Below, in pieces: positions 5,538 through 59,054 of a DNA stretch of 64,000 bases (positions are counted from its first letter, which is position 1; every line of letters begins with the position of its first letter). Both the position numbers and the translations under genes were made by a program. The stretch is from Candidatus Moraniibacteriota bacterium (lineage in GTDB: Bacteria > Patescibacteriota > Minisyncoccia > Moranbacterales > GWC2-37-73), in the NCBI GenBank assembly GCA_035390125.1, contig DAOOTD010000002.1, positions 105,908-169,907 on the forward strand, given 5' to 3'. The notes under the pieces are model-generated. The model worked only from the letters and a program-made list of their open reading frames with translations, did not search any database and was not told where the DNA came from.

Positions 5538-5713
5538 TAATTTATTCGCTTTTTGAAATTTATTGCGGAGTATGCTTCTGGGGAAATAGCTTTCTCGCCA
5601 CATTTCAAATGCAGCTCATTGAGCTAATCCAGAAACTATGCCAGTTAGCGTATACATTTTGTCATTTTTTGTTTTTGTTGTAAACTATATATATAAAAAA
5701 AGATATAAAAAAT

Positions 5714-6268
5714 ATGGAATATAATAAAAATGAGTTAGGAAAATTTCTTGATCCTGGTGCGATTGTAAAACAGTTAGAAATAAAACGGGGCAGTATAGTA
5801 GCTGACTTTGGATGTGGTCCTGGATATTTTTCAATACCCTTTGCAAAAATAATAGGAGAAGATGGAAAAGTTTATGCGTTGGATGTTCTGCCTCAAGCAT
5901 TGGAGGCTGTTGCGGCTAAGGCGAAAAATTACGGAATTAACAATATTATAACCAGTCGCGTTAACCTGGAAAAAGAAAACGGATCGAAAATGGAAGCTAA
6001 TTCTCTAGATTGGGTTATTTTGAAAGATATGTTATTTCAAAATCAAAAAAAGGATATAATTATAAAAGAAGCATACAGAGTTCTTAAAAATAATGGTCAA
6101 ATAATGGTGGTTGAATGGAACCAGAATGACTCAACTGTTGGTCCTGAATCTGAATTAAGGATTGCTGAAAATGATTTGAAAAAAATGTTTTCAGATCATG
6201 GATTTTTAATAGGCAAAAACATTAATGCGGGAGATTTTCATTATGCATTTGTTGCAATAAAAAAATAA
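5714..6268 (+). CDS. Class I SAM-dependent methyltransferase
   Basis: 184 aa; motif I VADFGCGPGYFS, acidic motif II (YALDV), Rossmann-like order. Confidence 0.7.
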   Translation: MEYNKNELGKFLDPGAIVKQLEIKRGSIVADFGCGPGYFSIPFAKIIGEDGKVYALDVLPQALEAVAAKAKNYGINNIITSRVNLEKENGSKMEANSLDWVILKDMLFQNQKKDIIIKEAYRVLKNNGQIMVVEWNQNDSTVGPESELRIAENDLKKMFSDHGFLIGKNINAGDFHYAFVAIKK

Positions 6269-6313
6269 TTTATTTCCGGGTATTTATATAAGAAAATTTA
6301 ATGAATTACAAAT

Positions 6314-7762
6314 ATGGAAATAATAAAAAAATACAAAAAAAATAAAATGAAAATAGTAATGGCTTTTCTTTCTTTTGCTATGATACCATTTTTTTCCGGC
6401 TGCGGGAGTTCTTCGTCAGCCGGATATCTAGTTCCACTTGAAATATGGGGACCACTCGATGATTCATTGGTATATAGTGATATTGTAGACCAATATAAAA
6501 AAATAAATCCATATGCCGGTGAAATAAAATATAAAAAATTTAGCCAAGATACCTATAGAGACGAACTTATTGATGCACTTGCCAGCGGGCAAGGCCCCGA
6601 TATATTCATGATAAACAACTCATGGTTTCCGTATTTTGAGAATAAAACATACCCTGCGCCAGCGCATCTTGTTAGTGAAATTGATGTGCAAAACAATTTT
6701 CCCGATGTCGTTTCCTCGGATTTTGTAAGTAACAAGAAAGTATATGCAGTTCCGCTAAGCATAGATTCTCTGCAGATGTATTATAATAAGGATATGTTTA
6801 ATGCAGCAGGTATTTCTTATCCGCCTAGAACTTGGGATGAATTTAAAGAAGATGTTCGTATTCTTGTATCAATAGACAATAGCGGAAACATAGTCAGATC
6901 GGGAGCGGCAATTGGAACCGCTAAGAATGTAAACAGATTTTCAGATATTTTCAGTATGTTGCTATTACAGAATGGGGTCAAAATGCCCATGAAAAATGGT
7001 GATGCAATAAATTTTGATGAAGGAATAGTTGGGCCTGATGGAAAAGTTATAAAAGCAGGAGAAAAATCACTAGAAATGTATACACAATTTGCAAGAATAA
7101 ATAATCCTGACGGTACAACAAATCCTTTTTATACATGGAATTCACAGCAGGATAATTCGATAGAAGCATTCGCTTCTGGATCAACAGCCATGATGCTTAA
7201 CTACTCATGGCAGAATGACGGAATCAAGAATAAAAATTCCAAATTGAACTACTCGATAGCTCCTGTTCCGCAGGTAGATCCAAACAAGCCCATTACAATA
7301 GCAAATTACTGGGGATATGCAGTTTCTTTGAATAAAATACCTACCAATACATCTAGAAATAGTGCGCAAAAAACAGCAGTTGTTTCTAATGATGTGCGCG
7401 CTCATGAAGCATGGCAATTCTTGAAATTTTTGACTCTAAAAAATTCAGGTAAAGTTACGCTCTATAATGCAAACACAAAAAACAGCAAAGACTTCGCAGT
7501 AAATTTTGATCCAGCAAATAATTATCTGGAGAGAACTAAAAAACCTGCCGCGCGTCGTGATATAATTGAATCACAAAAAGCAGATGCGTTGCTTGGAACT
7601 TTTGCAACCGGAAACCTTATAGCAAAAAATTGGTACAAAAAAGACGCAAATGCTGTAGAATCGGTTTTTTTGGAGATGATAAATTCAGTTAACAGCGGCA
7701 AGGCTCTGGATGAAAGTTTATCCATAGCGAAGAATAGAATAAATCAAATGCCAATCAATTAA
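6314..7762 (+). CDS. Extracellular solute-binding lipoprotein (ABC transporter substrate-binding protein, family 1-like)
   Basis: 482 aa; lipoprotein signal (…FFSGCGSSS), size and aromatic-rich periplasmic binding-protein-like sequence. Confidence 0.65.
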   Translation: MEIIKKYKKNKMKIVMAFLSFAMIPFFSGCGSSSSAGYLVPLEIWGPLDDSLVYSDIVDQYKKINPYAGEIKYKKFSQDTYRDELIDALASGQGPDIFMINNSWFPYFENKTYPAPAHLVSEIDVQNNFPDVVSSDFVSNKKVYAVPLSIDSLQMYYNKDMFNAAGISYPPRTWDEFKEDVRILVSIDNSGNIVRSGAAIGTAKNVNRFSDIFSMLLLQNGVKMPMKNGDAINFDEGIVGPDGKVIKAGEKSLEMYTQFARINNPDGTTNPFYTWNSQQDNSIEAFASGSTAMMLNYSWQNDGIKNKNSKLNYSIAPVPQVDPNKPITIANYWGYAVSLNKIPTNTSRNSAQKTAVVSNDVRAHEAWQFLKFLTLKNSGKVTLYNANTKNSKDFAVNFDPANNYLERTKKPAARRDIIESQKADALLGTFATGNLIAKNWYKKDANAVESVFLEMINSVNSGKALDESLSIAKNRINQMPIN

Positions 7763-7767
7763 TTTTT

Positions 7768-8211
7768 ATGATCAGAAATAAAACAAAAACTATGGGTAAA
7801 ATATTATTTATTTGCATAACTTTTGTTTTTGCACTTTTTCTTTTGTTTTCACCTGTTGCACATGCAGCTATTATTACTTGCGGAGCAACCTCAGATGACA
7901 TGTGCACTTTGTGTGATATGGTTGCAGGATTCAATACTATTATCCAGTATCTAATGAAAATTTCAATCGGTGTTGCGCTGCTGGCCATATCCATAGGAGG
8001 GATTTTGTATGTTGTTTCTGCCGGTGAACCTGGAGCTGTTGAAACGGCAAAAAAAGCAATCAAAAACGGAATCATCGGATTTGTTATTGTTTTTTCAGCC
8101 TTTATTATAATCGGTACAGTGATAAGTTATTTAGGAGTACAGGAAGGAATGGGAATACGTTCAGGAGTAACCTGGGGGACATTTGACTGTACAGCAGCAG
8201 GTGTTCGATAG
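7768..8211 (+). CDS. VirB2/TrbC-like T4SS pilin-family protein (CPR-type pilin)
   Basis: Signal peptide (…SPVAHA), Cys-containing mature N-terminus, then TM helix – VSAGEPGAVETAKKAIKNG – TM helix. Same architecture as the paralogs at 8264, 24506, 24852, 25323 and 25730. Confidence 0.55.
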   Translation: MIRNKTKTMGKILFICITFVFALFLLFSPVAHAAIITCGATSDDMCTLCDMVAGFNTIIQYLMKISIGVALLAISIGGILYVVSAGEPGAVETAKKAIKNGIIGFVIVFSAFIIIGTVISYLGVQEGMGIRSGVTWGTFDCTAAGVR

Positions 8212-8263
8212 TAAACCAAAAAGTAATTTATCGTTAGATTTTATTAATAATTTTTTTAAAAAA

Positions 8264-8896
8264 ATGATAAAATTTAAAAAAAATAAACTATTTTTAATGG
8301 CCGTTTTTGTTTTTTTGGCAATGATTTTTTTAAACCCCGTTAACGTATTTGCAGAAGATGCGGTAGTGAACTTTACTAACCCTCTAGGAGATATTACTAC
8401 TCTAGAAGGACTTGTATCTAATTTACTGTCAGCCGTTCAAAAAATAATAGTCTCATTGGCTTTGGTTTTTATTGTGGTGGGTGCGATAATGGTCCTTGTT
8501 TCAGCGGGAAGTCCGGAAACTGTGGAAAAAGGGAAAAAAGCTATTACTATGGCAATAGTAGGTCTCACAATTGGAATTGCAGCCCCATCGATATTAAAAG
8601 AAATCGCGAATGCTGTCGGTTGGAATTGTCCTGAAGGAGCTACAGATTGTGGAACTCTTACTGATGCACTTAATTTTTCCGATATTGCACTAAATGTTCT
8701 TAGTTTTCTTTTAGGTATAGCGGGAATACTAGCCATGATAATGCTGGTCATTGGAGGTATCATGTATTTGACTTCTGCTGGAGATGAAGAAAGAGTAGAG
8801 CAGGGCAAGAAAACATTCAAGTATTCCGTAATCGGAATCATAGTCATTATGAGTTCCATGATAATAGTAAGACAAATTGCTAATCTTTTTTTATAA
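8264..8896 (+). CDS. Tandem double-domain VirB2/TrbC-like pilin
   Basis: Signal peptide (MIKFKKNKLFLMAVFVFLAMIFLNPVNVFA), then two consecutive pilin units (…VSAGSPETVEKGKKAITMAIVG… and …LTSAGDEERVEQGKKTFKYSVIG…). The ORF track begins at an upstream TTG (8183) overlapping the previous gene; the ATG at 8264 is preferred. Confidence 0.55.
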   Translation: MIKFKKNKLFLMAVFVFLAMIFLNPVNVFAEDAVVNFTNPLGDITTLEGLVSNLLSAVQKIIVSLALVFIVVGAIMVLVSAGSPETVEKGKKAITMAIVGLTIGIAAPSILKEIANAVGWNCPEGATDCGTLTDALNFSDIALNVLSFLLGIAGILAMIMLVIGGIMYLTSAGDEERVEQGKKTFKYSVIGIIVIMSSMIIVRQIANLFL

Positions 8897-8934
8897 TCAA
8901 ATTACGCCCTTAAAAAATAAAAAAGAAAAATAAA

Positions 8935-9387
8935 ATGCTTATAAATGTTCCACAATATATAGATGTCGAAGATAAAATTGCAGGTCCGCTCACAGCTAAG
9001 CAGCTGGGGTGGGTTATAGGGCTAGGCATTACTCTTTTGGTAATGTGGAATATGTTGCCTAAGGTTTTGTTTTTTATTATAGGCATACCACTGTCCATTG
9101 CATTTTTAGCCTTTGCTTTTTACAAGCCATATGGTCAGCCACTGGGTAATTTTGTCATTTTTGGGATACTATATTTTTTCCGTCCAAAAATATATTTCTG
9201 GCAAAGAACTCCTCAGAAAAATATTCCCAGCAAGCAAAAAACAAAAACTGAAGAGTCCCGTCCGCCAGAAAAAAAACTTGATACTGAATCAATAATGGAT
9301 TTAGCAAGGGTCATGGACAGCGGTGGTTCTGAACGCAATGAAAGGATAGAAGAACTTTTAAAAAACGTTCCAATTAAAAAGAAATAA
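8935..9387 (+). CDS. PrgI/VirB3-like small conjugation membrane protein
   Basis: 150 aa; N-terminal VPQYIDVEDKIAGPLTAKQ motif then two TM helices and a K/E-rich tail. Directly upstream of the VirB4-family ATPase, as PrgI precedes PrgJ in Gram-positive T4SS. Confidence 0.45.
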   Translation: MLINVPQYIDVEDKIAGPLTAKQLGWVIGLGITLLVMWNMLPKVLFFIIGIPLSIAFLAFAFYKPYGQPLGNFVIFGILYFFRPKIYFWQRTPQKNIPSKQKTKTEESRPPEKKLDTESIMDLARVMDSGGSERNERIEELLKNVPIKKK

Positions 9388-9397
9388 CAAAAAAACC

Positions 9398-10087
9398 ATG
9401 GAATTATTGCACTCAAAAAATCTAACCAAAGGAACTTCCGGAGGAGGAAGTACCCAAAAATATGTCGACGTTGAAGAAGTCCGTGATGGGGTAGTTATAC
9501 TGAAAGATGGATCTATGCGCTCAGTACTTTTGGTTTCTTCAATTAATTTTGACTTAAAAGCTACAGAAGAACAAGATTCTATTATTAATCAATATCAAAA
9601 CTTTCTTAATTCACTAGATTTTCCAATTCAAATAGTGATAAGTTCGCGTAAACTGAATATTGCTCCTTATTTGGAATATCTTAAAAAAAAGGAAACACAA
9701 CTGACTAATGAATTGCTGATTTTACAGCTGGAAGAATATCGTAACTTCATAAAAAGCCTTACCGATGTTTCAAGTATAATGTCTAAATTCTTTTATGTGG
9801 TGGTGCCTTTCTACCCAGTTGAAAATGTTAAAACAAGTGTTTTTGACAGATTTTTCGGAGCTGCAAATACCCAGATGTCTGCTATGCGGAGAAGAGAACT
9901 TTTTGAAACTTACAAAAATCAGCTTTGGCAAAGAATAGAACATGTCAGTTCTGGTTTAAGCAGTACTGGCGTAAAAGCTGTTCCGCTTAAAACTGAAGAG
10001 CTTATAGAACTTTTGTATAATTCATATAATGCTACGACACATAATAATGCAATAATAAGAGATGTAGACAAGATTGAACTCAAATAA
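9398..10087 (+). CDS. VirB4/TraC-family ATPase, N-terminal domain (separate ORF)
   Basis: 229 aa; sequence (…VDVEEVRDGVVILKDGSMRSVLLVSSINFDLKATEEQDSIINQYQNFLNSL…) resembles the N-terminal domain of Gram-positive VirB4 homologues (TcpF/PrgJ type). Ends 72 nt before the ATPase ORF in a different frame. Confidence 0.5.
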   Translation: MELLHSKNLTKGTSGGGSTQKYVDVEEVRDGVVILKDGSMRSVLLVSSINFDLKATEEQDSIINQYQNFLNSLDFPIQIVISSRKLNIAPYLEYLKKKETQLTNELLILQLEEYRNFIKSLTDVSSIMSKFFYVVVPFYPVENVKTSVFDRFFGAANTQMSAMRRRELFETYKNQLWQRIEHVSSGLSSTGVKAVPLKTEELIELLYNSYNATTHNNAIIRDVDKIELK

Positions 10088-10158
10088 AAAAATAATCCAA
10101 ATTAATTTAAAATAAGTAGCTTCTCAGAAAGAGATTCAAATCTTATTTAATACTATAA

Positions 10159-11982
10159 ATGCTTGGAATAAACAAAAAAAATGACAAAAAACAAACTGTA
10201 AAAAGGGATCCGATTTTAGAAAGTGAGGAATTATATCAGCGTGGTGTTGCAACTATAAAAGATCTTATCGCCCCTTCTGCAATGAAGGTAAGTTCAAATT
10301 ACTTGCAAATAGGCGAAACGTTTGCCAGAACCGTTTTTGTTGTTGCCTATCCTAGATATTTGCATACAAACTGGTTTTCTCCGATTATAAACATTGATTT
10401 TTCCATGGATACTGCGATGTTTATACATCCTATTGATACAGTTGAAATATTAAAAACCCTCAGGAAAACATCAACCCAAGTGCAATCGCAGATTCACATG
10501 GAAGAACAGTCGGGAAAAATCCGAAATCCAATTTTGGAAACAGCCATTGAAGATATAGAAGATTTGCGCGATAAGCTCCAGCAAGGAACTGAAAAATTTT
10601 TCCGCTTCGGGCTCTACATGACTTTATATGCAAATAATTTGGAAGAACTTGAAAAAATACATTTGCAAATAGAAGCACTTCTCGAGGCGCAAATGGTTTA
10701 CATCAAGCCAGCGGTGTTAAAAGCTGAACAAGGTTTTTCCTCTACTTTGCCATTGGGAAATGATGAAATAGATATTGCTAATAATCTCAATACAGCACCA
10801 CTTTCTACGACATTTCCTTTTGTATCTTCAGATCTTTCATCTAATGAGGGTATTCTTTATGGGATTAATCGACACAATAACAGCCTTATTCTTTTTGACA
10901 GATTCCAAATGGAAAATGCCAATATGGTAGTTTTTTCTAAATCTGGCGGAGGGAAAAGCTATACTGTGAAACTCGAAATATTCCGTTCGCTGATGGTTGG
11001 AACCAATGTTGTTGTCATTGATCCAGAAAATGAGTACAAATATTTGTGTGAAACAGTAGGGGGAACTTTCATAAAACTTTCACTTAATTCTCCATATCAT
11101 TTGAATCCATTCGATCTTCCTAAAATTGGCGATGAAGAAGATCCTGAAGATGTTCTTAGGAGCAACATAGCCAGTCTTATAGGACTGCTTCATCTTATGC
11201 TTGGCAATGTAACTCCCGAAGAAGATTCAATTCTGGATATAGCTATTCGTGAAACATATGCGATGCGTGATATTACTGCCCGAAGCAATTTTAAGGCTCT
11301 TAATTCATCTTCTTTTCCGACCATGTCGGACCTTTATGCTGTTATTCGAAATTCAGAAGGCGGAGAATCAATAGCAAAAAGATTGGAAAAATACACAGAG
11401 GGTATTTTTGCTGGGGTGCTTAATCATACAACAAATGTACAGGTTGATAATCAAATGGTTGTCTTTAATATACGCGATCTTGAAGAACAGCTTAGGCCCA
11501 TTGCCATGTATACAGTCTTGCAGTTTATCTGGAATGAAATGCGGTCTTCACTTAAAAAAAGAATTGTAGTTGTGGATGAAGCTTGGGTTATGATGCAAAA
11601 TGATGATGCAGCATCTTTTTTATTTGGTATTGCAAAGCGTTGCAGAAAATATTATACAGGCTTAACAACAATAACTCAGGACATAGCAGATTTTATGACC
11701 TCGCGCTATGGAAAGCCGGTAGTAACTAATTCGTCATTGCAGCTGCTATTGCGTCAGTCTCCGGCAGCTATAGAAACAATTTCTGACACCTTTTTTCTAA
11801 CTGATCAGGAAAAGTTTCTCTTATTGGAAAGTGGGGTTGGAGAAGGAATTCTTTTTGCGGGAGCAAAGCATGTTGCAATAAAAGTTATTGCTTCATATCC
11901 TGAAGATCAAATCATAACATCTGATCCGCGCCAATTGATTGAAATTGAACAAGCCAAAAAAGAATTGGAAGAAGATGAATAA
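10159..11982 (+). CDS. VirB4/TraC/TrbE-family type IV secretion ATPase (ATPase-domain ORF)
   Basis: 607 aa; Walker A FSKSGGGKSY, Walker B VVVDEAW, overall CagE/TrbE/VirB4 domain order. Confidence 0.8.
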   Translation: MLGINKKNDKKQTVKRDPILESEELYQRGVATIKDLIAPSAMKVSSNYLQIGETFARTVFVVAYPRYLHTNWFSPIINIDFSMDTAMFIHPIDTVEILKTLRKTSTQVQSQIHMEEQSGKIRNPILETAIEDIEDLRDKLQQGTEKFFRFGLYMTLYANNLEELEKIHLQIEALLEAQMVYIKPAVLKAEQGFSSTLPLGNDEIDIANNLNTAPLSTTFPFVSSDLSSNEGILYGINRHNNSLILFDRFQMENANMVVFSKSGGGKSYTVKLEIFRSLMVGTNVVVIDPENEYKYLCETVGGTFIKLSLNSPYHLNPFDLPKIGDEEDPEDVLRSNIASLIGLLHLMLGNVTPEEDSILDIAIRETYAMRDITARSNFKALNSSSFPTMSDLYAVIRNSEGGESIAKRLEKYTEGIFAGVLNHTTNVQVDNQMVVFNIRDLEEQLRPIAMYTVLQFIWNEMRSSLKKRIVVVDEAWVMMQNDDAASFLFGIAKRCRKYYTGLTTITQDIADFMTSRYGKPVVTNSSLQLLLRQSPAAIETISDTFFLTDQEKFLLLESGVGEGILFAGAKHVAIKVIASYPEDQIITSDPRQLIEIEQAKKELEEDE

Positions 11983-12015
11983 AAAATAGAATCTTTATTG
12001 AATTAACAATTTATT

Positions 12016-12519
12016 ATGCCTGAAGATATTGCAAGAAATTTTAAAAACAACAGCGATAACCTTGATAGAGCTAGGCGAGAAAGGCCCAGCTCTTTTAGCA
12101 ATGGAAATCCTGTTGATATGACAAAAAATATTTCTAAAGCGGCTATAGCTAAAGGTTTTTTCCCTTTACTGAAAGAAATAGATCTTTCCAAAGATATGCC
12201 ATTTGTAGCTGCGCTTCTGGGTGCTTTAGGAAAAGATGTCTCTGACTTTGTTTTTGCTGAAACAATAATACTTTCCATGCTTACCTCAATTCTTTGTTCT
12301 ATATTTATTTTCATGATGTTAATTCTTGCTGGTTCTGGGCGAAGAAATAAGTCGGCAAGAGGCTTTGCTAAAAAAGCACTTACATTAATAGGAGGCGGAG
12401 CAGCTGATTCATTGCCCGGAGTAGATTTTTTACCAATTGAAACACTTACTGTCGGAATGATATATATTATGGTGTTGGCAGAAAGAGCAAGTGAAAAAAA
12501 TAATAAATTCAAACTCTAA
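12016..12519 (+). CDS. Hypothetical membrane protein (T4SS-cluster associated)
   Basis: 167 aa ORF with ATG on the same strand as the flanking operon. Charged N-terminus plus two hydrophobic segments. The overlapping minus-strand ORF looks low-complexity and was not chosen. Confidence 0.3.
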   Translation: MPEDIARNFKNNSDNLDRARRERPSSFSNGNPVDMTKNISKAAIAKGFFPLLKEIDLSKDMPFVAALLGALGKDVSDFVFAETIILSMLTSILCSIFIFMMLILAGSGRRNKSARGFAKKALTLIGGGAADSLPGVDFLPIETLTVGMIYIMVLAERASEKNNKFKL

Positions 12520-12609
12520 ATAATATATAGGCTTCACAATTAATTTTATAGCTGATCAGCTAATAATTAAGCACAAAAAAGTGTCAAGCTGATCTTTTCT
12601 TTTTTATTT

Positions 12610-14136
12610 ATGTCTTCTAAAATATATTCTGCCGCAACTATAGGTCTGGACGGAGAAATTGTAGAAGTTGAAGTTGATATTCTAGGATCCGGCCTGCACA
12701 ATTTTTCAATCGTTGGTCTCCCGGATATTGCAATCAAGGAGTCGCGTGATCGTGTTTCGAGTGCTATAAAAAATAGCGGATTTAAGCCACCACATCAGTG
12801 CGGTCGCATTACGGTGAATCTAGCTCCGGCAGACTTGCCAAAGGCCAGCCCTATTTATGATCTTCCTATCGCTATGGGATTTTTGCTTGCGACCAAACAA
12901 TTGCAATTTGATTTTAATGGCAGGATGATTGTAGGAGAACTTTCTCTTGACGGGCGCATACGTCCTATACAGGGAACTTTACCTATAGCTCTCTTGGCAA
13001 AAGAAAAGGGGTTTAATGAATTATATGTTCCATTAGAAAATGCAGCTGAAGCCAGTGTAGTTAAGGGAATAAATATTGTACCTGTAGATACTCTTTATTC
13101 TTTGGCTGATCATTTTTCTGGCAATAGAAAAATTGATTATTTCCCATCATTAGACGGGGATGTCCTATTTTCAACAGCAGATTATGAAATAGATATGGCT
13201 CATATTAAAGGTCAACAACATGCCAAGCGTGCTCTGGAAATTGCAGCAGCTGGTGGGCACAATGTTATTTTAAACGGACCTCCAGGATCAGGAAAGACTT
13301 TATTGGCTAAGGCTATTCCTACTATTCTCCCCCAGTTAACATTGGAAGAAGCATTGGAAATAACAAAAATATTTTCAGTTTCCGGAAAACTTAGGAAAGG
13401 ACAACCTCTAGTTACTTCAAGGCCATACAGAAATCCACATCATAGTGCCAGTAGTGTTTCTTTGATTGGTGGGGGGAGTTATCCAAAGCCTGGAGAAATA
13501 AGCTTAGCGCACAGGGGAGTTTTGTTTTTGGATGAGTTTGCTGAGTTTCCTAAAAGTGTTTTAGAGAATTTGCGCCAGCCACTTGAGGATGGTATGATAA
13601 CAATCTCAAGAGCCAAAGGATCTTTATATTTTCCAGCCCGGTTTATTTTGGTGGCCGCTATGAATCCCTGTTTTTGCGGGAACGCTACTGATCCGGAAAA
13701 AATATGCACATGTACGCCAGCACAGATTTCCCGGTATAAGCAAAAAATTTCTGGACCAATTATGGACCGCATTGATCTGCACATTGAAGTGCCACGTTTA
13801 AGTTTTGACAAGCTTCAAGAAGGAATAAGTGAAGAAAAAAGCGAGCAGATACGTGCCAGAGTGGAAGCAGCCAGAAAAATACAAGCTAAAAGATTTGAAA
13901 ATTTGTCGGTAATTTCTAACAGCGAAATGTCTTCTGATCAAATAAGACAATTTTGTCCTTTAGACGAAGAGTGCAAACAGCTTTTAAGAAATGCTGTATC
14001 AGCTCTAAAGCTTAGTGCCCGAGCTTATCACCGTATAATAAAAATCGCGCGTACTATTGCAGATCTTTCAAATAGTGAAAATATTCAGCCGGCACATATT
14101 GCCGAAGCCATTCAATACAGATTCAAAATGGAATGA
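12610..14136 (+). CDS. comM: YifB/ComM-family Mg-chelatase-like AAA+ ATPase
   Basis: 508 aa; N-terminal Lon-like domain (MSSKIYSAATIGLDGEIVEVEVDI), Walker A GPPGSGKT, Walker B LFLDEF, C-terminal ChlI/MoxR-like region. Confidence 0.85.
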   Translation: MSSKIYSAATIGLDGEIVEVEVDILGSGLHNFSIVGLPDIAIKESRDRVSSAIKNSGFKPPHQCGRITVNLAPADLPKASPIYDLPIAMGFLLATKQLQFDFNGRMIVGELSLDGRIRPIQGTLPIALLAKEKGFNELYVPLENAAEASVVKGINIVPVDTLYSLADHFSGNRKIDYFPSLDGDVLFSTADYEIDMAHIKGQQHAKRALEIAAAGGHNVILNGPPGSGKTLLAKAIPTILPQLTLEEALEITKIFSVSGKLRKGQPLVTSRPYRNPHHSASSVSLIGGGSYPKPGEISLAHRGVLFLDEFAEFPKSVLENLRQPLEDGMITISRAKGSLYFPARFILVAAMNPCFCGNATDPEKICTCTPAQISRYKQKISGPIMDRIDLHIEVPRLSFDKLQEGISEEKSEQIRARVEAARKIQAKRFENLSVISNSEMSSDQIRQFCPLDEECKQLLRNAVSALKLSARAYHRIIKIARTIADLSNSENIQPAHIAEAIQYRFKME

Positions 14137-18178: not shown

Positions 18179-19090
18179 TTATTTCTTTTTTCCGTGAAAC
18201 TGCTTGTGTATTTCTTTGAGTTGCTTGTTGGTAATGTGCGTATAAATTTGAGTTGTCGTTATGGAAGAATGTCCCAACATTGTTTGCACGCTTCGGATGT
18301 CAGCTCCATTAGAAAGTAAGTCTGTGGCAAAACTATGCCTTAGCGTGTGCGGATGTACATTTTTCACGATACCTGCTTTGGCTGCATAAAATTTTACTAT
18401 TCTTTGAATTGAACGTGGGGTCAAGCGCTTTGTTTTTTCGTTTCCAATTCCCCCTTTTTCGGATAATCGAATAAATAAAGCCGGATCCAAGTCCATGCGC
18501 TTGCTCAAATATTTTTCCAACGCCTCTTTTGCAGTATCAGAAATGAAAACTATTCTCATTTTATCGCCCTTGCCAATCACGCTAAATTCTTGTCTGGAAA
18601 TGTTCAATTGGTCGCAGTTTATATTTATAAGTTCAGAAACACGAAGTCCTGCCGAAAAAAGAAGCTCCAAGATTGCCCTATCGCGCATGGACTTTATGTC
18701 TGATCCTTCTGCGGCATGCAAAAGGCGGTCAAGCTCACCACTATCAAGAAACTCAATTTCATGTGATGGATTTTTACCAACTTCCAATTTTTCAGCGGCC
18801 AAACTTTTAATATCGCGCTTGGCAAGATATTTCAGAAAACTGCGGATGGCTATTATATGATAATTTTGAGTAACTTTTTTCAGTTCCTTGCCATGGCTAT
18901 CTTTCTGCCGGTTCAGATATAAACGGTAGCTCCTTATAAGCTCAGCAGTGATATCCTTGGGTTCGGATATTTTTGCCCAGGTCAAAAAGCGCTTGAGATA
19001 ATGATGATAATTCTCAATAGTCTTCTGCGAACGGTTACGTTCAATCTCCAAATATTCAAGAAATTCAGTCAGAAGGTTTTTTAATTTCAT
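18179..19090 (-). CDS. xerC: Tyrosine site-specific recombinase (XerC/XerD-like)
   Basis: 303 aa; catalytic R…HxxR…Y pattern (HTLRHSFATDLL, …QIYTHI), N-terminal SAM-like core-binding domain. Confidence 0.8.
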   Translation of the reverse strand: MKLKNLLTEFLEYLEIERNRSQKTIENYHHYLKRFLTWAKISEPKDITAELIRSYRLYLNRQKDSHGKELKKVTQNYHIIAIRSFLKYLAKRDIKSLAAEKLEVGKNPSHEIEFLDSGELDRLLHAAEGSDIKSMRDRAILELLFSAGLRVSELININCDQLNISRQEFSVIGKGDKMRIVFISDTAKEALEKYLSKRMDLDPALFIRLSEKGGIGNEKTKRLTPRSIQRIVKFYAAKAGIVKNVHPHTLRHSFATDLLSNGADIRSVQTMLGHSSITTTQIYTHITNKQLKEIHKQFHGKKK

Positions 19091-19505: not shown

Positions 19506-20567
19506 TTGCGTAATTATTCAGCCTTTGCAGTGGTGGTATCAAGTTCACTTCTTGTTTCAGCAACAAATGTTGCCTCAGGCAATAATTATGGCAAACTTCT
19601 TTTTGGTTATTGGGATGCATCAGCTGAGACCATTCCAGCGGTGAATGGCAGTAAAATAAGCGGACAGGTAAATAAAAAAAATGATTTAGCTCTTGTTCCC
19701 CTTTCCAAATCAAACACATCCATTGAACCAGAAAAAAAAGAAGATGATTCAAACAGGAGCATTATAAAGGATGACGGAATAATGCTGGTTTCTGGCGGAG
19801 CCAATCCGATGAAAGATCCTGAAGAAGAGGGCGGGGTTAAAATGTATATTGTACAATCCGGTGACACTCTCGGTTCAATCGCTGAAAAAAATGGAGTTTC
19901 GGTTAATACTATTTTGTGGGCAAATGACATCAGTAATGCCGACTCCATAATGCCAGGAGATACTATGTTCATTCTGCCTGTTTCAGGAGTAAAATATGTC
20001 ATAAAATCGGGAGACAATCTTGATGCTATCGCTAATAAATTTAAAGCAGAAAAAGATAAAATAATAGCCTTTAATGATTTGCCAGCGAATGGAGAAATAA
20101 AAGTGGGAGAAGAAATAATTATTCCTGATGGCCAGGGAGAAGCTCCTAAGCCAGCTGTTCCAAGCAGCAGCCAATCCTTAATCAATAAGAGGCAATATGC
20201 GAATACTGCAGGAGGAGTTCCCCAGATTACGGGCAGAATTCTTTCAGGGAAAGCCGGCACTGGTCATAGATTTCCATATGGATATTGCACTTGGTTTGTC
20301 GCCCAGAAACGTTATGTTCCCTGGGGTGGCAACGCTGGAACATGGCTGTACCATGCAAAAGCTGCCGGGTATGCAACCGGAAAAACTCCACGACCAGGAG
20401 CTATCGTAGTGACTACCGAGAACAGATATTATGGTCATGTGGCTTATGTTGAAAAAGTCAGCGGAAACAGTTTTACTGTTTCTGAAATGAATTATGTCGG
20501 TTATGCAAAAACAAGTCGCAGAACAATCTCAACTTCAAGCAGAGTTATTAAAGGTTTCATTTATTAA
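19506..20567 (+). CDS. Secreted peptidoglycan hydrolase with two LysM domains and a C-terminal CHAP amidase/peptidase domain
   Basis: Signal peptide; LysM repeats (YIVQSGDTLGSIAEKNGVS…, YVIKSGDNLDAIANKF…); CHAP Cys (GYCTWFVAQKR) and His (GHVAYVEKV). The ORF-track start is a TTG at 19506; the true start is uncertain. Confidence 0.75.
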   Translation: MRNYSAFAVVVSSSLLVSATNVASGNNYGKLLFGYWDASAETIPAVNGSKISGQVNKKNDLALVPLSKSNTSIEPEKKEDDSNRSIIKDDGIMLVSGGANPMKDPEEEGGVKMYIVQSGDTLGSIAEKNGVSVNTILWANDISNADSIMPGDTMFILPVSGVKYVIKSGDNLDAIANKFKAEKDKIIAFNDLPANGEIKVGEEIIIPDGQGEAPKPAVPSSSQSLINKRQYANTAGGVPQITGRILSGKAGTGHRFPYGYCTWFVAQKRYVPWGGNAGTWLYHAKAAGYATGKTPRPGAIVVTTENRYYGHVAYVEKVSGNSFTVSEMNYVGYAKTSRRTISTSSRVIKGFIY

Positions 20568-20642
20568 AATTGGCTGGTTAAAACAGGTTGAAAAAGTTAA
20601 ATTTTATATATAAATATAAAATATTTTCGTGAAAATAAATAA

Positions 20643-20678
20643 AGCCCCGTTTTTGTTAAAAGGGGCTTTTTATTTTTT
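20643..20678 (+). terminator. Rho-independent terminator
   Basis: AGCCCC-gtttttgttaaaa-GGGGCT stem-loop followed by TTTTTATTTTTT. Confidence 0.6.
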
Positions 20679-20689
20679 GATTAAAGTTA

Positions 20690-20719
20690 TTGCCTGACAT
20701 TACGAAAGTATGCTATAAT
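20690..20719 (+). promoter_or_regulatory. Candidate promoter: TTGCCT -35, 18 nt, extended TGcTATAAT -10
   Basis: Perfect TATAAT at 20714-20719 with TG two bases upstream, 31 nt before the VirB6-like ORF start. Confidence 0.35.
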
Positions 20720-20749
20720 TTTCACATATAGAATTAGATTGGAATCCTA

Positions 20750-22711
20750 ATGAATCTGATCTCGAAAAACAAAAAATTTTTCTGCAAAATCAAATTATTT
20801 TTTGGAATTTCCAGGGTTAAACTGGCAAGTCTTTTGCGGGACAAAAAATTCCAAACTTTTGTGGTCGCCGGATGCATTTTTCTTTGCGTCTTTTTTTTGG
20901 CGGTTCATGGGGTCTTTGCCGCTGACGCTGTTCCTGAAAAACCCGAAGAACCGGGTTTATTAAGTAAATTTTTTGGGGGAATACTTGATGGGGCAAGTGC
21001 AGTTTTTGTCACTGCCATATCCTTTATCTTGAGTGCAATTCAAGGCGTTATGAGTTTTCTAATCGGCGTGGCAGCTTCTCTTTTTTCAGCAGTTATTAAT
21101 CCTGATTTAATTTCCGGAGATAAAGGTTTATTGAACAATAATCCAGTTGTTAAGGATATCTGGATTATGGTGCGGGATACTTTCAATATGTTTTTTATTC
21201 TAGTCCTTCTTTTTTCCGCCTTCTGCACTATTTTCCAGATCGAAAAATGGAACCTTAAAAAAGTCTGGCTCAACATTCTCATCAATGCCCTGCTGGTTAA
21301 TTTCAGTTTTCCAATTGCATGCTTTTTTATTGATGTTGCGAATGTAGCTATGTATTATTTTGTTAATTCTATGTTTGGTGACAATACTGGCGCAGTTACA
21401 GGAAACGCAATTTTTGCCCAGTTGGGGGATGAATCAAGACTTTCGGCATTGTGGGGCCATGATGCTGATGGAACTACGATGCTAATGTATCAGGTTATGA
21501 ATATCATAATGTCTTTTATTTTGGGAATAACACTCTTGGTTTGTGCAGTTCTTTTTGCTATAAGGCTTATAGCCCTGGTAATCCTGGTTATGTTTTCGCC
21601 GATAGGTTTTGTCGGTTACATTTTTCCCGCAACCAGTAAATTTGCAGACGACTGGTGGAAAAATCTTTTCAGCTATTCTTTTTTTGGTCCGATAATGATT
21701 TTTGTCATAGGAGTTGCTGTCAAAATAAACCAATCAATAGGTGAAAATATATTTAAACAGTCGGCCGCTGACAATGCTGCATCGGTTCCTGGCGCAAGCG
21801 AATGGATTGCCAGTGCTTCCATGTTTGCTATTCCCATAATCATTTTGTGGATGGGCATGGGAGTAGCAAAATCATTGGGAATCGCAGGGGCGGATACAGT
21901 GGTTGGGGCAGGACAGAAATTTGCAAAATTTGCCGGTACAGCTACAGCCATGGCAGCTGGCGGAAATTGGGCTGCAAAGAATTGGAAGATGTATAAAGAA
22001 AAGCGTGATGAACGCCAAAAAGAGATTGACAAGAAACGTTTTGGGGGAAGCTTCGCCAAAGGACTCAATAAATGGGAAGATACTGGAATTGGTTTTGCAG
22101 GTGAAAAAATATCAAAAGGTATTGGAAAAGCTACTGGTGGCAAATGGACACCTAAGTTTGGAGAAAATGCTAAGGCAAGAGTCAAAGGATATCAGAACAC
22201 GGAATTTGATGAATTAGCTAAAAAACAGGCTGAGAGAATTAAGAATTCTGAAGACACTGGACATACTGCACAACAAATGAATGATTTTATTAAAAATAAT
22301 AATCAAATAACAGACGAATCAAAAGATTCAGAGGTAAATGATTTCGTTGGCAGATACAAACAAATGAGAGAAGATCCAGGAGCAAAAGCTGCTTTTGAAT
22401 ATAACATTAGAAACAATGCGGACAATATAAGGCAGTCAATTGAACAAGGAAAAATAGAGGCACAAAAATTAGTTGATAATGGTACTTTTGAAGAGGGATC
22501 TAATGAACATAAGGCCGCAATGAATTCTTTCCAAAAATCTCACATGGAGTCAATTGTAAAAAATCACTGGGCTCATTTAGCTCAAGAAAATAAGAACGCC
22601 CAGAAAAGGAAGAAAGGCGAAAAAATTAAGGATGATGAGCATAAGGCACCTCCTCCACCTCCTCTACCTCCTCCACCAAAACCTGCAAAACAGAGAGCTG
22701 GTTTTGTTTAA
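20750..22711 (+). CDS. VirB6/TrbL-like polytopic membrane protein with proline-rich C-terminal tail
   Basis: 653 aa; signal/anchor then about 7 hydrophobic helices over the first 370 aa, then a long hydrophilic K/E/Q-rich C-terminal domain ending KAPPPPPLPPPPKPAKQRAGFV. Call based on topology and neighbourhood only. Confidence 0.4.
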   Translation: MNLISKNKKFFCKIKLFFGISRVKLASLLRDKKFQTFVVAGCIFLCVFFLAVHGVFAADAVPEKPEEPGLLSKFFGGILDGASAVFVTAISFILSAIQGVMSFLIGVAASLFSAVINPDLISGDKGLLNNNPVVKDIWIMVRDTFNMFFILVLLFSAFCTIFQIEKWNLKKVWLNILINALLVNFSFPIACFFIDVANVAMYYFVNSMFGDNTGAVTGNAIFAQLGDESRLSALWGHDADGTTMLMYQVMNIIMSFILGITLLVCAVLFAIRLIALVILVMFSPIGFVGYIFPATSKFADDWWKNLFSYSFFGPIMIFVIGVAVKINQSIGENIFKQSAADNAASVPGASEWIASASMFAIPIIILWMGMGVAKSLGIAGADTVVGAGQKFAKFAGTATAMAAGGNWAAKNWKMYKEKRDERQKEIDKKRFGGSFAKGLNKWEDTGIGFAGEKISKGIGKATGGKWTPKFGENAKARVKGYQNTEFDELAKKQAERIKNSEDTGHTAQQMNDFIKNNNQITDESKDSEVNDFVGRYKQMREDPGAKAAFEYNIRNNADNIRQSIEQGKIEAQKLVDNGTFEEGSNEHKAAMNSFQKSHMESIVKNHWAHLAQENKNAQKRKKGEKIKDDEHKAPPPPPLPPPPKPAKQRAGFV

Positions 22712-22753
22712 TATACAGATAAAAATGTCAAGAATATTTTTTAATAAATTGTT

Positions 22754-23152
22754 ATGGATATAGATGCTATAAAAGACAGACTGACGAATAAATTTTCTTT
22801 GCCGCACGTTTCTTTTGAACAGGACACGATAGAACAAAAGAAATTGCTTGCGCTGTATGTGCTTGCTTCTGATAGCCAGCTTGTGTTGTTGCCGACTTAT
22901 TTTGCTTTTTCTTATCCCGCTTTCATTGCCGGTCTTAATGAAAAACATATTGAATATATAGCCAAAAACGCTCCAGCTGATTACAAAAGAGAGCTTATGA
23001 AAGCAATCAGCCAGAGCTACGTGCTGAAAGAAGTTTTTGAAATTGCAAAATCCATGGATGAAGATTTGGGCAGAAGCAGCACAACTAATCAGGACAGAAT
23101 AAAAAATGTCATGCGGTATATCAGGGATAACAGAGTAATTTTTGAATTCTAA
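22754..23152 (+). CDS. Hypothetical protein (T4SS-cluster associated)
   Basis: 132 aa soluble ORF, ATG start, protein-like composition. The overlapping minus ORF is not protein-like. Confidence 0.4.
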   Translation: MDIDAIKDRLTNKFSLPHVSFEQDTIEQKKLLALYVLASDSQLVLLPTYFAFSYPAFIAGLNEKHIEYIAKNAPADYKRELMKAISQSYVLKEVFEIAKSMDEDLGRSSTTNQDRIKNVMRYIRDNRVIFEF

Positions 23153-23162
23153 AAAACAAAAA

Positions 23163-24500
23163 ATGACAGTCATATATACAAATCAAAACAACATCTCTCC
23201 CAAAAATAATGCCGGCCAGTATGATTTGAATGAGGAAAGGAAAATAGCGGATGAAATAACCGAAGAGATAAAAGAAGACCTTATTGAAAAATGGAGAACA
23301 ACATATGAAAATGCTGAAATTTTTCCGTATAAAATCAGTGCCATGCATTCGGATGTCCTTGATTTTCTCTTGGGATTTGATCTGATTTCCATTTATGACA
23401 ATATAGCCAGACAGGCAGGACTTGATATGAAAGGCAGAAGCATTCTTCCTCAAGTTGTGTGGAGCGTTGCGCAAAGCAAAAAATGGAGTGAGGCAGAACA
23501 GGAATTGCAGAAAAGAATATTGCTTCCCCCGAATACTAAAGCTTTGACTTTGCAGCTTCTTGAACAAAACATAATAAGCAAACTTATCATGCTTTCGGCT
23601 AAGCCTTCGGCCAAAAAAAGTCCTGCCCAGAGCGAAACAGAAAGAAGAATCCAGTTGCCGCTTTCAGAAGCATTGCAAAAATACAAGGAACTGGGAGAAC
23701 AAAACATTACTATCAATCAGCTGAAACTCAAATATTTTCCTACGCCTGTCAGGCCATCTATAAGAAACTGGATTACTGATTTCCATGACAACATGGGAAG
23801 CGGAAAGCATGGTACAGTCGATAGGGCGAATTATTTATTTCACAGCGAAAATGGGAAAAAACTCACGCCCGTAGAAAGGCAGAAACTTTCATTGATTCTT
23901 AAATCACTGGACGAAAAAACTCCTTTAATCATCGATACGGAACTGCAACGGATTATTTTCACAGAAGGCAAGGTTTTTCCAAATGAACAAACTGAAAATT
24001 TGCCAAGCCGGAGCGGACAAACAGCAGAAATAAATATGTATTCAAAAAATGAAGAGTCTAATAGCTTTGCTGCTATAGAAGATAATTATCTGCAAGTTCC
24101 GAAATATCAGCCGCCCCAAGAAAATAAAAAATATTCTCCCAACTTCAAGGACTTGACGGAGCCGAGCGTTTTGCCGGAACAAAAAATAGTAAATTCAAAT
24201 CAGGATGATTCAAGAGGTTCGGTTGTGGATGAAGGCAAGGTAAGTTTTTCTTCTCCGCAAAAGTTTTCAAATGAAAAAGAAAATGAAAAACCAATAAGGC
24301 CTGCTAGTACGATTAGCCAGCAAAAAACATTTATGACCCCAACGCCACAAGCAGATAGAGAAAAAACATTTGGAAATAAAGCATCTGAAATAAAACCGTG
24401 GGTCATCAAGCCGTCTGCTTATTTTAATGAAGAAAAAACGGATGAAGAACAAACTTTACAGGCAAAAATAAGAGGAAACATTGTTGATTTAAAAGGCTGA
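23163..24500 (+). CDS. Hypothetical protein with low-complexity Q/K/E/P-rich C-terminal half
   Basis: Long ORF on the operon strand. The ORF-track start is a TTG at 23142; the ATG at 23163 is preferred. No recognisable motif. Confidence 0.4.
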   Translation: MTVIYTNQNNISPKNNAGQYDLNEERKIADEITEEIKEDLIEKWRTTYENAEIFPYKISAMHSDVLDFLLGFDLISIYDNIARQAGLDMKGRSILPQVVWSVAQSKKWSEAEQELQKRILLPPNTKALTLQLLEQNIISKLIMLSAKPSAKKSPAQSETERRIQLPLSEALQKYKELGEQNITINQLKLKYFPTPVRPSIRNWITDFHDNMGSGKHGTVDRANYLFHSENGKKLTPVERQKLSLILKSLDEKTPLIIDTELQRIIFTEGKVFPNEQTENLPSRSGQTAEINMYSKNEESNSFAAIEDNYLQVPKYQPPQENKKYSPNFKDLTEPSVLPEQKIVNSNQDDSRGSVVDEGKVSFSSPQKFSNEKENEKPIRPASTISQQKTFMTPTPQADREKTFGNKASEIKPWVIKPSAYFNEEKTDEEQTLQAKIRGNIVDLKG

Positions 24501-24505
24501 AAATT

Positions 24506-24778
24506 ATGGATATCATAAATACAGCATATGCAGGAGTTATTACAGACGCTCCTACAGTAAGAGAAATTGGAGCGAATGTTCTGTCTTTTTTATTGTCAAT
24601 AATGGGAATAATTGCTATAATATCATTAGTTGTCTCTGGAATAATGTATTTTTTTTCAGCCGGCGACTATAAAAGAATAGAGATTGCAAAAAAATCCACC
24701 AAATACTCAATACTGGGAATCGTCATTGCCTTAGGAGGAATGATAATAATCAGATTTATCGGCAGTTTTTTAAATTAA
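24506..24778 (+). CDS. VirB2/TrbC-like pilin-family protein (paralog 3)
   Basis: 90 aa; TM – FSAGDYKRIEIAKKSTKYSILG – TM; same motif as the other paralogs. Confidence 0.55.
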   Translation: MDIINTAYAGVITDAPTVREIGANVLSFLLSIMGIIAIISLVVSGIMYFFSAGDYKRIEIAKKSTKYSILGIVIALGGMIIIRFIGSFLN

Positions 24779-24851
24779 TCAGGATTCAAACGAATAAAGG
24801 AAAGTTTAAAATAAATAAAAAAATTTATAAACTAGAATGGGAGGTGTTACT

Positions 24852-25199
24852 ATGCTGAATAAAGTTAAAAAAATTTTTTATGCAATCGCCAGTTTAATCG
24901 CAATTGCTCCATCAGCAGTTTTGGCTATCAATGTGCCTGATGCAGATCTTCCGGATGCAACCCTTACAGATATAATCACTGGTTTTATGAACTGGCTTTT
25001 AGCTATCGTAGGTATTTTAGCAGTTATAGGATTCGTTATCGCTGGAATTATATATCTTACAGCTGCTGGAGATGAAGACCAGATCGCTCGTGGCAAGAAA
25101 ACCATGATTTACTCGTTGGTAGGTATTATCGTGGCTCTTATGGGAGTCATAATAATCAAAGCGGTGCAGTCAATGTTGGGCGGTGGCAGCAGTTTCTAA
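24852..25199 (+). CDS. VirB2/TrbC-like pilin-family protein (paralog 4)
   Basis: GGAGGT Shine-Dalgarno 7 nt upstream of the ATG at 24852 (ORF-track start 24837). Signal peptide …APSAVLA; TM – LTAAGDEDQIARGKKTMIYSLVG – TM. Confidence 0.6.
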   Translation: MLNKVKKIFYAIASLIAIAPSAVLAINVPDADLPDATLTDIITGFMNWLLAIVGILAVIGFVIAGIIYLTAAGDEDQIARGKKTMIYSLVGIIVALMGVIIIKAVQSMLGGGSSF

Positions 25200-25226
25200 A
25201 TTTTTTGTATGCATATAAAAGCAGAA

Positions 25227-25252
25227 GGCGATTCCTCGGAATCGTCTTTTTT
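25227..25252 (+). terminator. Rho-independent terminator
   Basis: GACGATTCC/GGAATCGTC stem (1 mismatch) followed by TTTTTT. Confidence 0.5.
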
Positions 25253-25322
25253 GCAAAGTGTACATAATTTAAGGATTATGATATAATTAAATTATAATAA
25301 TAATTTTTTATACTTTAAAAAA

Positions 25323-25685
25323 ATGAATATCAAAAAGAAAACATTGGGTACTATTATTTCAACAATTCTACTTTTTCCAATGTCTGTTCTGGCCGCAGAT
25401 GGAGAAGGATGGCAAATAGGAGATGATTATGGTCTTCCTACGGGAACCATAAGCGGAATTCTCGAGGGTCTTTTGAATTGGCTTTTGGGAATTTTTGCAG
25501 TCTTAGGAGTTATAGGCTTTATAATTTCAGGAATTATGTATTTAGTGTCCGCAGGTGATGAAGACGGAATTGCACGAGCTAAAAAAGCTATGATTTACTC
25601 GCTGATAGGAATTATTGTCGGCCTTTCCGGTATTATCCTGATAGCAGCTGTGGATAGCTTTTTAATGGGTAGCGGTACATTCTAA
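25323..25685 (+). CDS. VirB2/TrbC-like pilin-family protein (paralog 5)
   Basis: 120 aa; signal peptide …MSVLA; TM – VSAGDEDGIARAKKAMIYSLIG – TM; about 50 percent identical by eye to paralog 4. Confidence 0.6.
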   Translation: MNIKKKTLGTIISTILLFPMSVLAADGEGWQIGDDYGLPTGTISGILEGLLNWLLGIFAVLGVIGFIISGIMYLVSAGDEDGIARAKKAMIYSLIGIIVGLSGIILIAAVDSFLMGSGTF

Positions 25686-25729
25686 AATTCTTAATGACCT
25701 ATTTTTATCACCAATAATCTGCTAAAAAA

Positions 25730-57635: not shown

Positions 57636-57639
57636 AAAA

Positions 57640-59049: not shown

Positions 59050-59054
59050 ATTAT

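Follow-up and report, generated by a model that had tools for sequence, protein, structure and literature searches.

Analysis of a 64,000-nt stretch of the chromosome of a Moranbacterium (Patescibacteria), referred to below as the window and used for all positions unless stated otherwise, identified a type IV secretion system (T4SS) encoded in two gene clusters, at 7768-12519 and 19506-26227. The locus is very probably a vertically inherited chromosomal T4SS, typical of Patescibacteria and derived from monoderm (MPF_FATA) conjugation machinery. An earlier reading of the first cluster (the original prediction) had proposed a Gram-positive-conjugation-like T4SS, and this identity was supported by profile searches, synteny and the literature. 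Its view that such a composition is not characterised was out of date: the locus is an already described kind of system, another instance of a catalogue published in 2025 (PMC12102498), and the Saccharibacterial counterpart was found to be essential in 2023 (PMC10633639).

The features of the T4SS of the Patescibacteria clade were found together at this locus: a MPF_FATA-type VirB4, a TrsD gene beside virB4, PrgI/VirB3, VirB6, an array of pilins, and neither relaxase nor coupling protein near virB4 (81 kb). Conjugation genes were sought among the precomputed Pfam matches of each called gene between positions 101,819 and 182,646, in the numbering of the source contig in JGI metagenome 3300025706; this region corresponds to the window plus 7-10 kb on either side and covers about 81 kb of the 279-kb contig. 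The sample of relatives consisted of the 80 loci with the best VirB4 matches in the species representatives of GTDB, and six loci of VirB4 relatives outside Patescibacteria, four of them with pilins, were inspected for comparison.

The first cluster consists of six close-set open reading frames (ORFs), all on the plus strand and separated by intergenic gaps of 10-71 nt. Its VirB4 ATPase gene (10159-11982) codes for a 607-amino-acid protein without the extreme N-terminal domain, which matched P-loop_TraG (E = 1.3e-27) and passed the cut-off of the CD1110 family of Gram-positive VirB4 proteins in NCBIfam (373 bits against 325). Both predicted motifs were located, Walker A SGGGKS at residues 262-267 (nt 10942-10959) and Walker B VVVDEAW at residues 470-476 (nt 11566-11586). 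The nearest solved structure was the C-terminal domain of Thermoanaerobacter VirB4 (4AG5, E = 1.7e-48); TrwK was matched with E = 1.4e-5. Outside Patescibacteria, the closest VirB4s were encoded on monoderm replicons (30-36% identity), and all the best plasmid relatives were monoderm, with identities of 36% at most. The score above the CD1110 cut-off, the Firmicute structure as nearest neighbour and the monoderm plasmid relatives indicate an affinity to Gram-positive systems. On profile scores and identities, the protein appears closest to other Patescibacteria VirB4s, with MPF_FATA affinity; the Patescibacteria VirB4 clade has been placed within MPF_FATA (PMC12102498).

The PrgI/VirB3-like gene (8935-9387, plus strand) codes for a membrane protein with two hydrophobic helices, which matched PF12666 (E = 2.1e-9; 38.2 bits against a cut-off of 27) and TcpE (E = 7.5e-4) and carries the motif VPQYIDVEDKI at residues 5-15 (nt 8947-8979). 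The gene was located directly upstream of TrsD-VirB4 in nearly all of the 80 loci that reached far enough upstream. By analogy, the PrgI/VirB3 protein would anchor VirB4 to the membrane.

Between these two genes, 71 nt upstream of virB4, lies a TrsD-like ORF (9398-10087, plus strand; 229 amino acids) with a precomputed match to PF26593 (TraC-like). Its NCBIfam matches were confined to the TrsD/TraD family and to the N-terminal portion of profiles for complete VirB4 proteins: VirB4_plasma at positions 98-233 of 894 (E = 3.9e-11) and TrsD NF041427 with E = 7.5e-8, at a score far under the NCBIfam cut-off (32 bits against 200). On profile TIGR00929 (792 positions) the TrsD-like ORF covered 18-178 and VirB4 238-724; on the CD1110 profile (752 positions) the corresponding ranges were 3-78 and 178-734. 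In BLASTP searches against the unsplit, 831-amino-acid VirB4 of a Bacillus mycoides plasmid, the TrsD-like ORF aligned to residues 26-142 (E = 1e-9) and the 607-amino-acid VirB4 to residues 220-818. These complementary positions, on the same profiles and on an unsplit VirB4, show that VirB4 is split here, TrsD being its detached N-terminal domain. Paralogy of ORF 9398-10087 with the N-terminal part of the adjacent VirB4 had first been considered (BLASTP E = 0.03) and gave way to this better supported reading.

The pilin gene pil1 (7768-8211, plus strand; start at 7792 according to one gene caller) codes for a VirB2/TrbC-like T4SS pilin (PF18895 T4SS_pilin, E = 2.4e-9; 37.6 bits against a cut-off of 26.6) with a signal-peptide-like N-terminus and a two-helix hydrophobic core with a SAGE-x-KK loop. 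The product of pil2 (8264-8896, plus strand) is a tandem two-domain pilin of 210 amino acids with one signal peptide and two PF18895 stretches (E = 3.4e-24), which also matched TrbC/VirB2 (E = 7e-10) and the NCBIfam Mbov_0395 pilin-like family (E = 2e-9). Close relatives keep pil1 upstream of this double pilin, and the two-domain architecture, upstream of PrgI, was kept in all genomes that share the two-cluster layout described below.

Searches with pil1 and pil2 yielded four further VirB2-like pilin genes, all on the plus strand, at 24506-26227. The 90-amino-acid product of pil3 (24506-24778; PF18895 E = 5.9e-7, above the cut-off) has no obvious signal peptide and is 48% identical to the second domain of pil2. 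The products of pil4 (24837-25199; PF18895 E = 1.3e-11) and pil5 (25323-25685; E = 2.2e-8) carry signal peptides and are 53% identical to each other. That of pil6 (25730-26227; E = 1.7e-8) has a signal peptide and a Cys-rich N-terminal extension with six Cys, at positions 38, 42, 49, 53, 64 and 75. Overall, six pilin genes encode seven PF18895 domains, all above the cut-off; Sec-type signal peptides were recognised on five of the six. Their pairwise identities (23-53%) agree with those surveyed in Patescibacteria, where VirB2-like pilin arrays of 2-11 genes are widespread, with a mean identity of 25% and a maximum of 54% (PMC12102498).

The pilins are of PF18895/TrbC type with Sec-type signals and are not class III prepilins, and no PilB or PilC was found in the cluster, which is not what is expected of a type IV pilus. 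Elsewhere in the window, 21 kb from the T4SS, a gene at 47278-50361 (plus strand) codes for a protein of approximately 1,005-1,027 amino acids in which two complete PilB/GspE-type (T2SSE) ATPase modules follow one another (TIGR02538 PilB, E = 1.7e-262, in two stretches). This doubled PilB-like ATPase is presumably part of a separate type IV pilus system; the doubling is unusual.

As regards the content of 7768-12519, the profile searches placed the PrgI-like, pilin and VirB4 ORFs above their cut-offs, in agreement with the original prediction of two VirB2/TrbC-like pilins, a PrgI/VirB3-like protein with two transmembrane segments, a VirB4-type ATPase and a small membrane protein; the last of these is polytopic and is here named ORF6 (12016-12519). 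Five plus-strand genes had been counted instead of six, the TrsD-like ORF having been overlooked. The module had also been drawn too short: its second part, at 19506-26227, lies beyond the coordinates first given and adds a hydrolase, VirB6, two soluble proteins and four pilins. Two pilin genes in the first cluster and four in the second account for the six pilin paralogs that had been predicted.

The two clusters are separated in the window by about 7 kb of housekeeping genes. All 80 relatives are Patescibacteria metagenome-assembled genomes (MAGs) with VirB4 identities of 53-89%, mostly named Moranbacteria or Moraniibacteriota; the named lineages in this identity range are Moran-, Portnoy-, Ryan- and Terrybacteria. 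When VirB4 identity was at least about 77%, the layout was that of the window: a solute-binding protein (SBP), pil1, the double pilin, PrgI, TrsD, VirB4, ORF6, ComM, Rpf, KsgA, PcrA, Xer and CHAP. At 56-75% identity, a single contiguous cluster was found, with the order KsgA, (secreted proteins), VirB6, u452, PrgI, TrsD, VirB4, ORF6 and, further on, proteins with pilin domains; the space between ORF6 and the pilin-domain genes holds genes for a CPBP-like protein and for a secreted one of about 900 amino acids.

The order VirB6-u452-PrgI-TrsD-VirB4-ORF6-pilins is contiguous in approximately 45 related genomes. This indicates that the two clusters of the window belong to one machine, and on gene order they appear to be parts of one ancestral system parted by rearrangement. 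Since more distant relatives have a single cluster, both the split and the adjacency of ComM to ORF6 are best read as lineage-specific rearrangements. The ComM/YifB (Mg-chelatase-like) gene (12610-14136, plus strand) begins 90 nt downstream of ORF6 and occupies this position only in genomes with the split layout; its adjacency probably arose by rearrangement and not from a functional link.

Many MAGs with near-identical Moranbacteria T4SS loci (e.g. L007, L008, L025, L050 and L053) are titled 'uncultured Bdellovibrionales', 'Micavibrio' or 'Candidatus Saccharibacteria'; these labels are probably taxonomic errors in the submitted records. Distant Moranbacteria with unsplit clusters contain extra in-cluster genes (L034, 3511-5697 and 12413-15881; L038, 3019-5235 and 12416-15957; L063, 3526-5617 and 12528-16245, in locus coordinates), which code for a thrombospondin-type-3-like Asp-repeat protein, a secreted protein of about 350 amino acids, a CPBP/CAAX protease-like membrane protein and a secreted protein of 900-1,000 amino acids. 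No homologue of these genes was found in the window at E < 1e-3.

The second cluster begins with a gene for a LysM-LysM-CHAP peptidoglycan hydrolase (19506-20567, plus strand; LysM E = 3e-22, CHAP E = 7e-19), which is located directly upstream of VirB6 in the relatives L029, L033, L043, L057 and L059. Its position and the CHAP-bearing hydrolases of Gram-positive T4SSs make it the likely VirB1-type wall-opening enzyme of the system. The following gene (20750-22711, plus strand) codes for an extended VirB6/TrbL-like polytopic protein of 653 amino acids (PF04610 TrbL, E = 1.6e-6; 28.5 bits against a cut-off of 25.9), with multiple hydrophobic segments and a hydrophilic, Lys/Glu-rich and Pro-tailed C-terminus of about 270 amino acids; the CD3337/EF1877 mobilome membrane family was matched weakly. 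Here 8.8 kb separate this gene from virB4, but in the approximately 45 more distant loci it is contiguous with PrgI-TrsD-VirB4.

Three of the remaining genes are unannotated. ORF6 (plus strand) codes for a conserved companion of VirB4, found directly after it in most Moranbacteria loci, split and unsplit alike, with a strongly conserved membrane core (SILCSIFIFMM...GGG.ADS.PG.DFLPIETLT). It had no matches in Pfam, NCBIfam or PHROGs. The AlphaFold 2 (AF2) model showed a four-helix core with moderate confidence (predicted local distance difference test, pLDDT, 71), and comparison with the PDB by Foldseek gave no match at E < 1. The soluble protein u452 (23163-24500, plus strand) has a conserved all-helical N-terminal domain of about 270 amino acids, confidently modelled by AF2, and a variable, probably disordered tail. 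Of its 158 homologues, those named by source all came from Moranbacteria or unclassified bacteria and none carried a Pfam domain; searches of PHROGs and NCBIfam were empty, and no convincing PDB neighbour was found for the N-terminal model. We regard ORF6 and u452, judged by their synteny in the relatives, as conserved members of the T4SS cluster. Between VirB6 and u452, u132 (22754-23152, plus strand) codes for a small soluble protein in which no hydrophobic segment was found and which had no family match in Pfam, NCBIfam or PHROGs. A homologue occupies the same position in L075, and gene position suggests that u132 belongs to the T4SS.

As predicted, the neighbours are core genes, including IF2, RbfA, KsgA, PcrA, NusA, Tig and ClpP. 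ComM, an RpfB/YabE-like G5-DPBB protein, KsgA, PcrA and a Xer-type tyrosine recombinase (18179-19090) are encoded between the two clusters, and the window also contains PcrA/UvrD and RuvABC genes. Upstream, an orphan SBP_bac_1 solute-binding lipoprotein gene (6314-7762, plus strand; 482 amino acids, lipobox-like FFSGCGSS) stops 5 nt short of pil1; genes for an ABC permease or ATPase were not found in the vicinity, and only close relatives keep the adjacency to pil1. Farther away, the region 56979-60020 (plus strand) codes for a 7TM_transglut membrane protein, two ATP-grasp (RimK/YheCD-like) enzymes and a glycosyltransferase, and resembles a peptide-ligase/modification cassette. Scanning 5600-12700 for promoters and terminators gave matches not clearly above shuffled expectation and no intergenic terminators, a result uninformative on operon structure. 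The Rfam scan of the window gave a tRNA-Ser only.

A location of the T4SS close to the replication origin, suggested by the 2025 paper (PMC12102498), found no support here: over the 81 kb there was no dnaA gene, no cluster of DnaA boxes and no minimum of the cumulative GC skew, which rose almost monotonically over 101,819-182,646 and tracked gene orientation. In this the Moranbacterium T4SS does not demonstrably follow the trend reported for many Patescibacteria (PMC12102498).

How such a machine might work can be pictured from its parts. The pilins would enter the membrane through Sec. A hexamer of VirB4/TrsD would dock on PrgI/VirB3 and VirB6, extract the membrane-inserted VirB2-like pilins and polymerise them into a short pilus or conduit, which would pass through a hole cut in the wall by the CHAP hydrolase. 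The structure would then contact a host cell and move protein or other host-derived macromolecules, not conjugative DNA, and the pilin paralogs would probably adapt its tip or shaft to different host surfaces.

Several points weigh against this interpretation. Pilus, cargo and transport direction are each an inference. No VirB8-like (PrgL/TraM) component was recognised by Pfam or NCBIfam, which could be due to divergence; the models of ORF6 and u452 did not have the NTF2-like fold. Of 3,035 Patescibacteria genomes, 2,918 encode homologues of the type IV coupling protein (T4CP), most of which lie far from virB4 (PMC12102498), and one may be present elsewhere in this genome, beyond the 81 kb of the 279-kb contig.

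A first alternative is that the genes are the remnant, or an active part, of an integrative conjugative element (ICE) that still transfers DNA with a relaxase, oriT and coupling protein located elsewhere. Every part that could be recognised has homologues among the conjugation proteins of Gram-positive bacteria, the two clusters flank a tyrosine recombinase gene, T4CP homologues are common elsewhere in Patescibacteria genomes (PMC12102498), and the nearest actinobacterial relative, a plasmid of Embleya, has a T4CP and a replication-relaxation protein beside VirB4. However, no called gene in the 81 kb matched a Pfam family of relaxases or of VirD4/TcpA-type coupling ATPases, as had been predicted, and relaxases are present in just 103 of 3,035 Patescibacteria genomes (PMC12102498). 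The search for att-like or oriT-like repeats over 4800-27000 gave only short AT-rich chance matches, with no flanking direct repeats, which bears out the predicted lack of oriT-like features; no notable inverted repeats were found in the intergenic regions. GC content is uniform (0.33-0.39), with no anomaly at the locus. Neither island boundaries nor variable presence were seen: the locus is syntenic with housekeeping genes across dozens of species-level genomes, VirB4 identity tracks relatedness, and the recombinase gene itself belongs to this conserved chromosomal context. We therefore consider an ICE extremely unlikely.

The original prediction had favoured DNA uptake or attachment over conjugation. 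A function other than conjugation is indeed probable, while the uptake of DNA was not supported. A machine like ComB of Helicobacter or Ced of Crenarchaea, taking up host or environmental DNA as a source of nucleotides or for transformation, would accord with ComM, a transformation helicase, 90 nt from ORF6, with the PcrA/UvrD and RuvABC genes of the window, with a weak match to CedB and with the hypothesis of the 2025 survey that DNA or other macromolecules are imported (PMC12102498). The match to CedB, though, reached 45 bits against a cut-off of 700 and that to CedD 22 bits against 600, and families specific to CedA or ComB were unmatched. The argument from ComM was rejected because the adjacency is lineage-specific: it occurs solely where VirB4 identity is at least about 77%, follows from the rearrangement that split the cluster and is not seen in unsplit clusters. 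In Southlakia epibionticum, moreover, the T4SS is essential, in contrast to transformation, which requires ComEC and can be dispensed with. Among export, import and adhesion roles, DNA uptake is the least supported, and it seems a quite unlikely function here.

An adhesive VirB2-type pilus, which would attach the cell to its host without translocation, is a rather unlikely sole function. It would fit the surface diversification suggested by the 23-53% pairwise identity among the six pilins, some of which have additional extracellular segments; in relatives, pilin domains are fused to large extracellular regions, and no coupling protein that would recruit substrates was found in the 81 kb. Against adhesion alone, Patescibacteria already adhere by type IV pili, a separate PilB-type ATPase is encoded in the window, and T4SSs devoid of a coupling protein, such as Ptl and the VirB system of Brucella, still secrete proteins.

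The T4SS described here can be compared with several known systems. Quinonero-Coronel et al. (2025) surveyed 3,035 Patescibacteria genomes and found VirB4 in 2,417, with TrsD as the most abundant VirB4-associated component, widespread PrgI/VirB3 and VirB6, and KsgA as a frequent neighbour (PMC12102498). In Southlakia epibionticum, Wang et al. (2023) showed by transposon sequencing that the T4SS locus is essential for epibiotic growth, including PrgI, the gene at the TrsD position, VirB4 and the six pilins, and noted that the locus has no coupling protein or relaxase (PMC10633639). A review from 2025 makes the same points and speculates that pilus and T4SS provide a passage for signals or for taking up material from the host.

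The S. epibionticum ML1 system (SEML1_0006-0019) shares with the window the order VirB6-like, PrgI, TrsD-position protein and VirB4 of about 610 amino acids, six divergent PF18895 pilins, a nearby wall hydrolase and KsgA, and a chromosomal location with neither relaxase nor coupling protein nearby; the comparison with Saccharibacteria thus gave the same core order and six-pilin array (PMC10633639). Unlike it and the surveyed T4SSs, the Moranbacterium locus is split in two and has one fused double-domain pilin. ORF6, u132 and u452 are found almost only in Moranbacteria and close relatives, and are unannotated in both studies (PMC10633639, PMC12102498).

Plasmids of the pGO1/pSK41/pIP501 type (MPF_FATA) have the same triplet of a VirB3-like protein, TrsD and a short VirB4 (trsC-trsD-trsE or traC-traD-traE, an order mirrored by PrgI-TrsD-VirB4), the same monoderm architecture without outer-membrane core proteins and a CHAP-type hydrolase. 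They differ in carrying a relaxase, oriT, a coupling protein and VirB8-like proteins, none of which was found in the 81 kb around the Moranbacterium locus, and no pilin has been reported for them, compared with six here. Profiles built on Mycoplasma ICEs also matched, i.e. the Mbov_0395 pilin-like family with pil2 (E = 2e-9) and the Mbov_0397 VirB4 family with TrsD (E = 3.9e-11) and VirB4 (E = 8.5e-87), all below equivalog cut-offs. Mycoplasma ICEs are mobile and carry a DDE transposase and a coupling protein, whereas the Moranbacterium locus is chromosomally fixed.

Modules with a CD1110-family VirB4 were found on monoderm plasmids and megaplasmids. In Pontibacillus (NZ_CP062975; L087, 7489-17042) two pilin genes are followed by genes for TrbL-like, PrgI-like and TrsD-like proteins, VirB4 and a wall hydrolase, the gene order of the Patescibacteria T4SS. 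The module on the Bacillus mycoides replicon NZ_CP036106 (L088, 1434-5670) comprises genes for a pilin, a PrgI-like protein, an unsplit VirB4 and a hydrolase; a VirD4-like protein and TrbL are encoded elsewhere on the plasmid. In Embleya (NZ_CP108778; L092, 4595-15438) an unannotated pilin-like ORF is followed by genes for a large membrane protein, a PrgI-family protein, VirB4, a T4CP, a replication-relaxation protein and NlpC/P60. The product annotated in this plasmid as 'PrgI family protein' (L092, 7383-8432; 349 amino acids) also matched TrsD of the window (E of about 1e-9), which suggests a PrgI-TrsD fusion. All three modules thus resemble the Moranbacterium locus in having a PF18895/TrbC-type pilin beside PrgI and VirB4 genes. 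They differ in their plasmid or megaplasmid location and in having one or two pilins, not six; B. mycoides and Embleya also have a VirD4-like coupling protein.

Two papers from 2025, the survey (PMC12102498) and the review, state that Gram-positive T4SSs lack VirB2 homologues, and the pilin-bearing monoderm loci conflict with this statement. Such pilins of Bacillota and Actinomycetota are already named by NCBI annotation models; no publication describing them was found in the literature searched. Searches of the plasmid collection by tblastn with single pilins were too insensitive for such short hydrophobic proteins. The presence of pilins beside the same core genes in monoderm relatives (four of the six inspected loci, a small sample) suggests a common inheritance of pilins and monoderm module, as opposed to a recruitment of the pilins from diderm systems.

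We put forward, tentatively and as somewhat doubtful, that the Patescibacteria T4SS descends from an unrecognised pilin-bearing subclass of the conjugation systems of monoderms (Bacillota/Actinomycetota), in which, on some plasmids, a coupling protein and a relaxase-like gene have been retained. In the Moranbacterium, the components for DNA processing would have disappeared, the pilins would have multiplied and fused, and ORF6 and u452 would have been recruited as lineage-specific partners; the system would serve as an essential conduit for host contact or import. If so, VirB2-type pili would be neither an innovation of Patescibacteria nor a loan from diderms, and 'Gram-positive conjugative pili' would be more widespread.

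Few molecular handles exist on the life of the ultra-small, host-dependent Patescibacteria, and their T4SS is one of them. Comparison with relatives defined the full Moranbacteria gene set, in which two unannotated proteins and the double pilin are candidates for structural and genetic work, and marked the adjacency of comM as a probable rearrangement artefact and not a functional clue. Compared with the systems already described, the analysis adds two accessory genes that are conserved but lack annotation, a fused double pilin, likewise conserved, and homologous pilin-bearing modules in plasmids of Bacillota and Actinomycetota; the pilins encoded beside PrgI and VirB4 on those replicons bear on the published view of monoderm T4SSs as pilin-less.

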